A stretch of DNA of 64,000 bases. Source: Eledone cirrhosa (taxonomy: Eukaryota). The notes beneath the pieces are model-generated. The model did no database searches. It saw nothing but the letters and a program-made list of their open reading frames with translations, and was not told where the DNA came from. Every line of letters starts with the position of its first letter. Positions within the stretch are counted from its first letter, which is position 1. Both the position numbers and the translations under genes were made by a program. Shown piece after piece: positions 17,432-42,864 of this stretch. Location of the stretch: the NCBI GenBank assembly GCA_964016885.1, contig OZ024740.1, positions 85,436,001-85,500,000 of the forward strand. The letters run 5' to 3'.

Positions 17432-17871
17432 ATGAAGAGAGAAGAAACATTTAGATATAATTAGTAATAAAATGTATCATACCTAAACTGCTCCTAAATT
17501 CCTCGACTACGTAGTTTCGTGGCATAAACAAAAACAATATATCATAAAGATATAGAGTCCTTGCGAGGTCTGCCGACTTATCAAGAGGATACCTCATTTT
17601 ACTAGTCTCAAGAACGCGTCTACACGACGTGAGAAAGAATCCCAAAAGGCGGAGGGGGAGATAGTCACGCGATATAACGGTCGAGAAACAGAGCTAAGCC
17701 TCTTATAACCCTGAAGAAAATACCACGGAGGCGGAGGGGGTATTTATATCGAGGCCGTAGAAGAGGTGGTGAAGAAGGCGAGAAGTATGAGTAATGGAAG
17801 CTTTCCGGCTGTCCCCACACTTCAAAGATTGCTCGACCAGAGGGAGTTATTAACAATATATTTAGAAACAC
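17432..17871 (-). mobile_element. PLE pseudo-LTR fragment inserted in (TA)n, containing a hammerhead
   Basis: Flanked by (TA)n on both sides; contains the hammerhead at 17500-17589. Confidence 0.6.
17500..17589 (-). ncRNA. Type I hammerhead ribozyme, U3:A8 variant
   Basis: Minus strand: tcctc TTGATAA gtcggca...tgccac GAAA ctacgtag TC gagga. Stem I is tcctc/gagga, stem III is the palindrome ACTACGTAGT, cleavage triplet GUC. Confidence 0.8.
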
Positions 17872-17900
17872 ATATATATATATATATATATATATATATA

Positions 17901-18061
17901 ACGAAGGAAATGTGGTAAGGAACCAGGTGGACCATAACGCACCAAAGTACTCAATACTTAGGGTAGTCGAGTGGGTAATAGGAACGAGTAGGACCAGACG
18001 GCTGAGCTCAAGCCGTCGAAACGGCTTGAGCTCAGCCGTCGGGGTCCTACTCGTTCCTATT
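17901..18061. mobile_element. Short (TA)n-embedded tail + hairpin insertion (family also at 51803-51929)
   Basis: A unique ~77-nt segment, then the near-perfect hairpin ATAGGAACGAGTAGGACC..GACGGCTGAGCTCAAGCCGT cgaa ACGGCTTGAGCTCAGCCGTC..GGTCCTACTCGTTCCTAT. Confidence 0.7.
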
Positions 18062-18248
18062 ATATATATATATATATATATATATATATATATATATATA
18101 TATATATATATATATATATATAGAGAGAGAGAGAGAGAGAGAGAGAGAAAATTGAGGTTGGTAATGGCACATGGAATATATAAGAGACAGAATACTTTTT
18201 TGTGAAAAAACATAATTTTATAAGGTAAGGAAATAATAAAGGGTATAA

Positions 18249-18296
18249 AAAATGACCGGTTTCGATGGGTCGGCAAAAGCCATCTTTTCAAATGTT
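18249..18296 (-). ncRNA. Type I hammerhead ribozyme, U3:A8 variant
   Basis: aacat TTGAAAA gatgg-loop-ccatc GAAA ccgg TC atttt. Palindromic stem III ACCGGT; weak stem I. Confidence 0.65.
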
Positions 18297-40198: not shown

Positions 40199-40457
40199 CA
40201 TATATACATATATATATATATACATATATATACATATATATATATATACATATATATATACATATATATATATACATATATATATATACATATATATATA
40301 CATATATATATATATACATATATACATATACATATATACATATATATATATACATATATATATATATACATATATATATATACATATATATATATATACA
40401 TATATATATATACATATATATATATACATATATATATATACATATACATATATATGC

Positions 40458-42238
40458 ACATGCAAATAACGAAGCCAGAGGAGTTCTTTGATGCCACAAC
40501 ACTACATCAAGAAATGGCAACCATCAACCACATAGACATAACGGAGGAGGATGTGGTGTACGCCATTGATGAAATTAGAACAGACTCGGCTGCTGGACCT
40601 GATGGATTCCCAGCAGTTCTCTTAAAAATATGTAAGCGGGCCTTAGCAACTCCACTGAAGATGCTCTTCAGAAGCTCCTTGGCTAGCGGTGTACTACCCA
40701 GGGAGCTGAAAGAAGGCACAATATGCCCTATCCATAAAGGAGGTAGCAGAGCGGAGGCCAAAAACTATAGGCCAGTCTCCCTGACGTCGCATATCAGTAA
40801 GGTCATGGAGCGAGTCATCAGAAAGAAACTGATCACTTTCCTCGAGGAAAATGACCGCCTGACTAGCACGCAACATGGCTTCCGCCCAGGAAGAAGCTGC
40901 CTTACACAGCTGCTACATCACTACGACTGGGTATTGAGACAACTACTAGACAGCTCACACGTGGACGTGATATATCTTGACTTTGCGAAGGCCTTTGACA
41001 AGGTCGACCACGGAATGATATGTCACAAACTACACGGACTCGGCATAACTGGAAAATAGGTGAGTGGTTGCATGGCTTCCTAAGGGACAGAAGCCAGGCA
41101 GTCGCAGCAAATGGGGCCCTCTCAAAGGAAACACCAATAACAAGTGGGGTGCCCCAGGGGACAGTCCTGGGACCACTACTGGTTTTGGTGGCTCTCTCAG
41201 ACATGCCCTCTGTAGTACATACAACAACATCCCTCACTAGCTATGCTGATGACACTAAGGTAGCACAAGCAATCAAAAACCTGGCTGACGCTGCCCTTTT
41301 ACAGCAGGATCTGGATGCCATATACAAATGGGAGGAAGAAAACAATATGCAGTTTAATGCTGGCAAATTCCAAGCCCTACAATACAAACCTCCAAACAAA
41401 CCTGCAAACACAAATATAGTGGAACACAACTACACAGGACCAGGAGGGACTGATATCCCCGTGTCAAAATCGATACGAGACCTGGGCATAGACATGAGCG
41501 ATGATGCATCTTTTTCTTCACACATCATGAAAGTGGCGACAATGTGCAGACGACTCGCTGGCTGGATCTTGAGGACTTTCCGGACAAGAGATCGAGACTC
41601 CATGTTGAAACTATGGAGGACATTTGTCCTAAGCCGCCTGGACTACTGCTCCCAGTTGTGGTCACCCCATAGTGTCAAACTAACCACGGAGCTTGAGGCA
41701 ATCCAGCGAAGATACACCAAGAGGATTGCCAAGATGAGGGAGACAAGCTACTGGGAGAGGCTAAAGGAACTGAACCTCTACTCCTTGGAGCGAAGACGGG
41801 AGAGATACGCAGTGATCTACATGTGGAAAATCCTGGAGGGACTAGCACCAAACTTTGGCATTGGGAGCTGGACCAACCGTTGAACAGGACGTCACTGTGT
41901 GGTGCCAAAGGTCCCGTCTTCCACATCTAGAATAAGGAGCAGGTATTGCAATAGCCTGGGATTCAAGGGCCCTCAACTCTTCAACAGGCTGCCGAGGGAT
42001 CTGAGAGACTTGCATGACGTGGAGGTGGATGTCTTCAAGAAACATCTCGACACCTTGTTATCCAGGATCCCGGATGAGCCCACAGCAAGACACGAGGGAA
42101 ACCTAAGGGCAGCAGCAACAAACTCCCTCTTACACTAGTGGCCAACCTATACAGGCTGGAGATAAAATGTGTAGTAACAAGGGCGGTGCCCCAGCATGGC
42201 CTCAGCCGGATGGCTGAAACAGGTAAAAGGATAAGAGT
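40458..42238 (+). mobile_element. 5'-truncated CR1-group LINE (RT + 3' UTR)
   Basis: [73 protein letters not shown]; frameshift near 41055. Confidence 0.9.
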
Positions 42239-42520
42239 ATATACATATATATATACATATATATATATATACATATACATATATATATATATACATATAC
42301 ATATACATATATATATATATACACATATATATATATATACATATATATATATACATATATATATATATATATATACATATATATATACATATATATATAC
42401 ATATATACATATATATATACATATATATATATATACACATATATATATATATACACATATATATATATATACATATACATATATATATATATATACATAT
42501 ATATAAATATATGTATATAT

Positions 42521-42864
42521 AATGTATTTTGAAATACACTTTATGCTTAATTAAAAGCATTTTGAAGACCGTAAGCTATAGTTTTAAAGTAGTGACAAAT
42601 TCACTCACTTTGATCTCAGCAAACAGGGGAGATAAGCCGACAAGACTTGTTTCGCTTTGGTTGAAGCTTATCAAGGCCAACTACCCCACCTGTTTGCTGA
42701 GATCATTGATGTTATATTCTTATAGAAATCTAGTAAATAATCAGGAGCTGATTTCAGAGCTCCAATTCTAATTTTTAATTTCTGCCTGACCAACAACCGC
42801 TCTGCATAATCAGCTCCTGATTATTTACTAGATTTCTATAAGAATATAACATCAATGATCTCAA
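42521..42864 (-). mobile_element. PLE-type fold-back insertion with hammerhead in (TA)n
   Basis: Arms 42698-42753 / 42808-42863; hammerhead at 42635-42678. Confidence 0.7.
42635..42678 (-). ncRNA. Type I hammerhead ribozyme, U3:A8 variant with extended stem I
   Basis: ggcc TTGATAA gctt caacca aagc GAAA caagtcttg TC ggct, enclosed by the pairing TGATCTCAGCAAACAGG (42611-42627) / CCTGTTTGCTGAGATCA (42689-42705). Confidence 0.8.

Follow-up and report, generated by a model that had tools for sequence, protein, structure and literature searches.

Hammerhead-type ribozyme motifs with a U3:A8 pair in place of C3:G8 in the core are fixed, in the genome of Eledone cirrhosa, in a Penelope-like element (PLE) that fits the Neptune type and in two families of tandem repeats which are likely copied by PLE enzymes. 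The motifs, designated A, B and C after their families, are located in a stretch of 64,000 nucleotides (assembly GCA_964016885.1, contig OZ024740.1, positions 85,436,001 to 85,500,000 of the forward strand; this whole stretch is the window). Cleavage after GUC is predicted for them, with dimers as the likely active form, and the paired exchange at positions 3 and 8 has likely taken place several times under selection that preserves the pair, a reading to which, taken as a whole, a probability of roughly 0.7 is assigned. A preliminary description of the window had noticed the paired exchange and had taken it as a sign of selection for activity and as the possible mark of one PLE lineage.

Four U3:A8 motifs were recovered by descriptor scans at the sites where they had been described, all four with GAAA and GUC. 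Hammerhead A (17500-17589, minus strand; U3 17584, A8 17579, C17 17505) is of type I, with a long helix II, the region of which is bulged and spans 59 nt, and a 10-nt palindromic helix III. Hammerhead B, with a 6-nt palindromic helix III and a weak helix I made up of two pairs, a C-U mismatch and two further pairs, is found twice, on the minus strand at 18249-18296 (U3 18291, C17 18254) in the 3' repeat of the Neptune-type PLE and on the plus strand at 19761-19808 (U3 19766, C17 19803) inside an inverted repeat. Hammerhead C (42632-42681, minus strand; U3 42674, A8 42669, C17 42639; descriptor scan, fold and covariation), again of type I, combines a 4-bp helix II and a near-palindromic helix III with a long extended helix I. 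The type I core N3-U4-G5-A6-N7-N8-A9, G12-A13-A14 and A15.1-U16.1 with an NUH site is present in all four motifs, and the Watson-Crick 3:8 pair is U:A in each of them. The helix III sequences of A and B are self-complementary, and so is that of C apart from one central mismatch; the three helices have covariation support in the group of sequences around family C, while in A and B they are seen as complementarity only. The earlier statement that the stems are kept is generous for B with its weak helix I.

In total, four U3:A8 and four C3:G8 descriptor matches occur in the window, and 60 block-wise dinucleotide shuffles gave 0.05 U3:A8 matches per shuffled window with a maximum of one. Families A, B and C show no mutual BLAST similarity and fall into separate clusters, which bears out their description as dissimilar. 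None of the three reaches an Rfam gathering score, a score that does not define the class: C matches Hammerhead_HH9, the consensus of which is C3/G8, with 24.6 bits (E 2e-4) under the gathering score of 52, and A and B match no Rfam hammerhead model. Among the 150 matches listed (of 448) from an Rfam scan of the whole window no hammerhead was found; these 150 are chance matches of the microRNA type on TA repeats.

The U3:A8 variant is already known, in PLEs since 2014, and no new chemistry is reported here. Pairing of C3 with G8 and natural covariation to U3-A8, active in vitro, have been described for several hammerheads (Perreault et al., 2011, PMC3088659); this is the covariation seen here, and the parts of that work consulted contain no family-level or lineage analysis in retroelements. 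In PLE hammerheads of Schistosoma mansoni about 1,300 U3-A8 matches have been reported, with two U3-A8 rows and one U3/G8 row in the supplementary alignment (Cervera & de la Pena, 2014, PMC4209133). The schistosome motifs have in common with those described here the type I architecture in PLE terminal repeats, the short palindromic helix III, the predicted dimer and the U3-A8 pair. They differ from the present case of at least 27,000 matches in about ten families, of both Neptune and Hydra type and with matched C3:G8 sisters; equally, helix III of A and C is longer than in their minimal motif. The first descriptor of that study and the one of Craig et al. (2021, PMC8557442) begin with cuganga, in agreement with the earlier warning that CUGANGA searches miss the motifs, and a second descriptor was built in the 2014 study. 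No study that maps the 3:8 pair onto lineages was found in the hammerhead and PLE literature searched, beyond which further U3:A8 cases may exist.

A search of the 3.0-Gb genome gave 1,358 candidates for A, 988 for B and 1,183 for C, of which 40 each were scored, with full-length matches being 97-100% identical. Read from distinct copies in 90 fetched loci, which are those closest to the query so that pattern counts are the fairer test, the core is U3:A8 in 48 of 49 copies of A, 28 of 28 of B and 51 of 52 of C. In the two exceptional A and C copies G5 is changed, and C3:G8 is found in none. U3:A8, not CTGANGA, is thus the family state of A, B and C and not the outcome of decay.

Beyond these three families, a genome-wide pattern matched 27,828 U3:A8 sites (553 in the control), 13,844 C3:G8 sites (217), 389 C3:A8 sites (180) and 338 U3:G8 sites (164), so that mismatched cores, 727 together, make up about 0.9% of the matches after background; family A and many Hydra-type motifs are not covered by the pattern, which requires G10.1-C11.1 and C15.2 and counts a few sites twice. 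With a broader descriptor, applied to 58 evenly spaced 10-kb stretches (580 kb), 46 C3:G8, 16 U3:A8, 2 U3:G8 and 1 C3:A8 motifs were obtained, counts which include tandem units and a few false positives. U3:A8 is common in the genome; majority status is not claimed. Two further families illustrate its constancy, with U3:A8 in 30 of 30 copies of family I and, among the first 100 of 407 matches of family E, 92 U3:A8, 6 U3:G8, 2 C3:A8 and no C3:G8 cores. A propagated U3:G8 wobble subfamily in E was considered and rejected on these 6 against 2 copies and on two inverted copies of one insertion (L271), which differ at position 8. Equally, an excess of A-to-G changes at position 8 resembling RNA editing is not seen (U3:G8 174 versus C3:A8 209 after background). 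A separate observation concerns the Neptune-type U3:A8 family D (L093, L208), which often occurs as very short inverted pairs and may outnumber every other hammerhead family of the genome.

The window copy of family B is a 5'-truncated element (18148-19565, minus strand; self-BLAST, tblastn) consisting of an endonuclease end, a microsatellite-rich 3' untranslated region and the 3' repeat with hammerhead B. It is joined by an inverted copy of this repeat (19564-19890, plus strand), 98% identical to 18167-18491 by self-BLAST; a truncated element with an inverted terminal repeat carrying a hammerhead is the usual PLE shape. Its coding remnant comprises the last 61 codons of the GIY-YIG endonuclease (19355-19537, minus strand; tblastn, with Pfam GIY-YIG on copy L075), 95% identical to other copies. 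The open reading frame (ORF) of the family, assembled from the overlapping copies L083 and L075, encodes a reverse transcriptase (RT) with a C-terminal GIY-YIG domain (Pfam RVT_1 and GIY-YIG above cut-off), and a DKG motif, a CX4CX2C linker, which fits CX2-5CxxC, and a CCHH finger are present in copies L086 and L075. The CCHH-type endonuclease that had been ascribed to the element at 18148 is hence found in other copies of the family, but the two CCHH cysteines lie beyond the 61 residues left in the window copy. By its motifs and its likeness to the Naiad/Neptune endonuclease type, family B fits a Neptune-type PLE, which we take to be Neptune rather than Nematis. The C-terminal GIY-YIG, the CCHH finger, the CX2-5CxxC linker and DKG are likewise features of the Neptune clade (Craig et al., 2021, PMC8557442).

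Families A and C are non-coding tandem repeats with units of 595 nt and 316 nt, respectively, and one type I hammerhead in each unit. In the window, A is represented by a 5'-truncated copy with 457 nt of the unit (17425-17881, minus strand), its 3' end located 80 nt beyond the cut site at a TA microsatellite, and C by a truncated copy (42499-42753, minus strand), which equally has its 3' end at a TA microsatellite, with an inverted partial copy at the 5' junction (42751-42863, plus strand). Two or more units on the same strand were found at 19 of 30 A loci and 15 of 30 C loci, some of which overlap, and the arrays of both families are tandem with inverted partial copies. The longest ATG frames encode 76 (A) and 28 (C) amino acids, and the GC content is 0.42 and 0.35. 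Tandem one-hammerhead units without coding capacity and with GC below 45% are shared with the metazoan non-LTR (long terminal repeat) retrozymes, type I as well, for which PLE-driven mobility has been proposed (Cervera & de la Pena, 2020, PMC7229834; Li et al., 2026, 10.64898/2026.07.22.740005). The U3:A8 core is different from these; the 595 nt of family A exceed the 150-450 bp of the former study and lie within the 51-972 bp of the latter.

Copy 3' ends cluster at +80 and +245 (A) and at +140 and +166 (C), mostly at TA runs, and 5' ends are scattered. As fixed 3' ends at TA runs with scattered 5' ends agree with the tail signature and the use of AT-rich targets that have been described for PLEs (Craig et al., 2021, PMC8557442; Frangieh, 2024), copying of A and C by PLE enzymes is likely by analogy. 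No match of the A and C units to coding PLE ends was found among 280 loci, a small sample, and no autonomous partner of either family was found, the nearby endonuclease fragments (L045, L050, L017) belonging to other families. Directly next to family C arrays, inverted 3' ends of CCHH-type PLEs of the F5/F9 group are found at three places (L009, L017, L018-L020), which may reflect shared TA targets or hint at the mobilising enzyme. Two further observations touch family C, namely a 310-nt C3:G8 tandem family (L237, L240) that has its tail in common with it, and two sequencing runs from other organisms, each with one low-depth contig over the second C-unit core (L019:1140-1770), for which positions 3 and 8 are not among the changes listed.

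Does U3:A8 then mark a single CCHH-type PLE lineage and its dependants, with Hydra-type elements keeping C3:G8? A part of this proposal survives, in that U3:A8 is, for this genome, the fixed state of the Neptune-type group: all five Neptune-type families with a readable ribozyme (B, D, E, N3a, N3b) have it together with an identical 6-nt helix III, although E has one locus with an endonuclease end and the single N3a copy read has a changed A in GAAA, and four of the five group at 94/96 in an endonuclease tree. Published data also point this way, as all 26 Hydra-clade ribozyme rows listed in File S2 of Craig et al. (2021, PMC8557442) are CUGANGA, though the list came from a CUGANGA descriptor. 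Families G and I described here are U3:A8 in contrast. In the Hydra-type family G, the U3:A8 motif follows 325-780 nt behind the endonuclease in all three endonuclease-bearing loci (L203, L205, L206), and this endonuclease, with a CxCX5C linker, CxxC and CxH but no CCHH, falls inside the Hydra-type group at 100/100. The motif of family I lies just 5' of a Hydra-type ORF with DKT and RWR, the best match of which among the fetched loci is the C3:G8 family F8 (52-77%), and family I is thus likely Hydra-type. The linker of G and the DKT and RWR of I are shared with the Hydra clade, as are the absence of CCHH and TA targeting (Craig et al., 2021, PMC8557442). Conversely, the CCHH-bearing F5/F9 group, with a copy in the window at 52890-52939 (minus strand, descriptor; core start 52931), has kept C3:G8, and the supposed tie between CCHH endonuclease and U3:A8 is lost on this side as well. 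This group is presumably Nematis-like.

Trees lead to the same result. At least two changes of the 3:8 pair are forced by the starred branches of the endonuclease tree (23 rows), a single change suffices in 0% of 200 bootstrap trees, and a single U3:A8 clade is rejected with an approximately unbiased (AU) p value of 0.015 (14 rows with known core). A ribozyme search behind Hydra-type endonucleases gave a likely own motif for 4 of about 20, and none was found behind the Neptune-type N4; the Hydra-type rows without ribozyme and N4 are unlabelled in the 23-row tree and were left out of the AU test. A third case is provided by C', a multi-copy sister family of C with 2,054 candidates, in which the core is exactly C3:G8 in 29 of 34 copies and U3 occurs in none; C and C' are 78-81% identical over about 270-290 of the 316 nt. 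The tree of the C group (17 rows, positions 3 and 8 masked) requires one switch, and since distant relatives of C (L150, L237) are C3:G8, U3:A8 is likely the derived state. Restriction of U3:A8 to one lineage is, hence, very improbable and in its strict form contradicted, and about three or more switches of the pair would have to be assumed, involving the Neptune-type group, some of the Hydra-type elements and part of the C group.

Several occurrences of U3:A8 could alternatively go back to one or two origins, followed by spread through exchange of the ribozyme-bearing terminal repeats by template switching between co-inserted elements. The piling up of elements in shared TA runs and the C copies next to inverted CCHH-type PLE 3' ends would provide the opportunity. 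On the other hand, C and C' correspond colinearly across the ribozyme and their helices match, the layout of helices I and II in family I resembles F8 and F17 and not the Neptune motifs, and helix III and the flanks are different in G, I and B, with no similarity between the flanks of I and G. We consider such an exchange improbable.

Repeated independent switching raises the question of what acts on the pair. That selection does so can fairly be inferred from the comparison of families. Among the 24 credible multi-locus families there are 16 with C3:G8, eight with U3:A8 and none with a mismatched majority core; single-locus matches were left out of this count, and family E was read from its first 100 matches. 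The U3:G8 majority of one cluster (cluster 7) stems from U3:G8 copies fetched deliberately, and a G3/A8 cluster, likely a false positive, was set aside. Every 3:8 switch changed both positions. In the C group (13 rows), 99.4% of cells pair against 16-41% in slid controls, with two-sided changes in 6 of 12 pairs including 3:8, scores that are inflated by related rows. As genomic copies are mostly dead on arrival, the paired switches point to selection on the few source elements, such that families of mismatched core would fail to spread and C3:G8 and U3:A8 families would both spread. The preliminary claim that the paired change implies selection for activity can be followed as far as the pair is concerned, given the lack of mismatched families and the roughly 1% of mismatched matches, while activity is a further, predicted step.

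This further step is where a different explanation enters, by which the motifs are kept for a role other than cleavage, such as a structure for protein binding or initiation, or cleavage is dispensable and the pair is carried along, with U3:A8 having arisen by drift in an AT-rich genome. Drift alone should leave families with mismatched cores, which are not seen among the 24, and the surroundings of U3:A8 motifs are no more AT-rich than those of C3:G8 motifs (GC 0.35 versus 0.33, p 0.69), on which grounds local AT content was rejected as the cause of U3:A8. Furthermore, the 3:8 pair is formed only in the active hammerhead fold, which speaks against this explanation. The pairing as such has been described previously (Perreault et al., 2011, PMC3088659). 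A link of U3:A8 with G10.1-C11.1 (8 of 8 versus 9 of 16 families) was dropped, the discovery pattern having required this pair and N3b being without it.

In favour of a role without cleavage, and thus weighing against the reading preferred here, are several results on folding. In the monomers, the hammerhead fold is less stable than the minimum-energy fold by 4.4 (A), 8.7 (B) and 6.2 (C) kcal/mol, compared with 0.5 for C', in a fold model that ignores tertiary contacts and proteins; helix I probabilities do not exceed 0.03, and the predicted B dimer is without the hammerhead helix II. Copy 5' ends do not gather at the cut site, where none of 45 A segments begins and which a single one of 47 C segments approaches to within one base, so that the cut site as copy boundary was discarded for these segments. 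Experimentally, an anole PLE could transpose in vitro without cleavage, and reads ending at the site were not found (Frangieh, 2024), and one of nine frog retrozyme dimers was cleaved, the other eight being inactive in vitro (Li et al., 2026, 10.64898/2026.07.22.740005). The same caution extends to the several origins and to the counts: ORF pieces accompany family I at 2 of 30 loci, the endonuclease alignment is short (140-143 columns) with three rows less than half filled, support for the C-group switch is only 87/84, and genome-wide copy counts are non-independent because 60 of the first 100 U3:A8 pattern matches are one family, D.

Maintenance of the motifs without cleavage is nevertheless judged unlikely, and cleavage by dimers is considered the better explanation. 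For PLE hammerheads in which helix III is short and palindromic, poor cleavage as monomers and weak cleavage as dimers have been reported (Cervera & de la Pena, 2014, PMC4209133), and the helix III dimer duplex is predicted at -12.9, -8.3 and -10.1 kcal/mol for A, B and C. Two motifs within tandem or inverted transcripts would pair through the helix III palindrome and cut after GUC, and the resulting unit-length RNA, perhaps circularised, would be reverse-transcribed by the PLE at an AT-rich nick.

Other hammerheads and repeats surround the three families. For comparison, a Hydra-type remnant (35148-37258; descriptor, self-BLAST) with an endonuclease end at 36020-36214 is flanked by inverted C3:G8 hammerheads (35178-35248 and 37158-37228). 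A nearly intact Hydra-type PLE ORF, with an RT of 598 amino acids and the endonuclease in another frame, is located at 45289-47539 and is without ribozyme because its 3' repeat is cut off at a poly-T run. Elsewhere in the genome, a retrozyme-like C3:G8 repeat of 467 nt forms an array of about 30 units (L153-L170; C1:5738326-5752444), and C3:G8 hammerheads with a long helix II for which a coding partner was not found occur at L037, L125, L180, L217 and L219. The window further contains a short repeat, unrelated to A and B, that lies between TA runs and has a strong internal palindrome (17902-18062 and 51805-51930), and a repeat family with long perfect hairpins in TA-rich DNA (25659-25992, 32229-32524 and 52651-53193). 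A degenerate A- and C-rich short tandem repeat of about 7 kb occupies 5700-12500, and three copies of a non-LTR retrotransposon, 91-95% alike with AP endonuclease and RT and presumably RTE-like, are found at 26557-30007, 37564-40523 and 49388-50983.

The coexistence of both core states has consequences for the study of PLEs and their ribozymes. Of the hammerheads of this genome, between a quarter (by the broad scan of 580 kb) and two thirds (by the narrow genome-wide pattern) would escape descriptors restricted to CUGANGA, and as all readable Neptune-type families are among those missed, catalogues of PLE ribozymes built on them are biased. A more speculative thought, for which we see rather small odds, is that the 3:8 pair serves as a tuning switch that has been flipped repeatedly, with the rate or folding balance of U3:A8 favouring copying in the host. 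If true, this would explain why U3:A8 is fixed throughout the Neptune-type group and why it arose separately in Hydra-type elements and in retrozymes, and the sister pairs C/C' and I/F8, which in any case are ready material for assays, would make the control of PLE and retrozyme success by ribozyme cleavage testable. Irrespective of such tuning, repeated paired switches without a single mismatched family provide comparative evidence that the catalytic fold of PLEs is under selection, where cleavage was dispensable in the one in vitro study considered.

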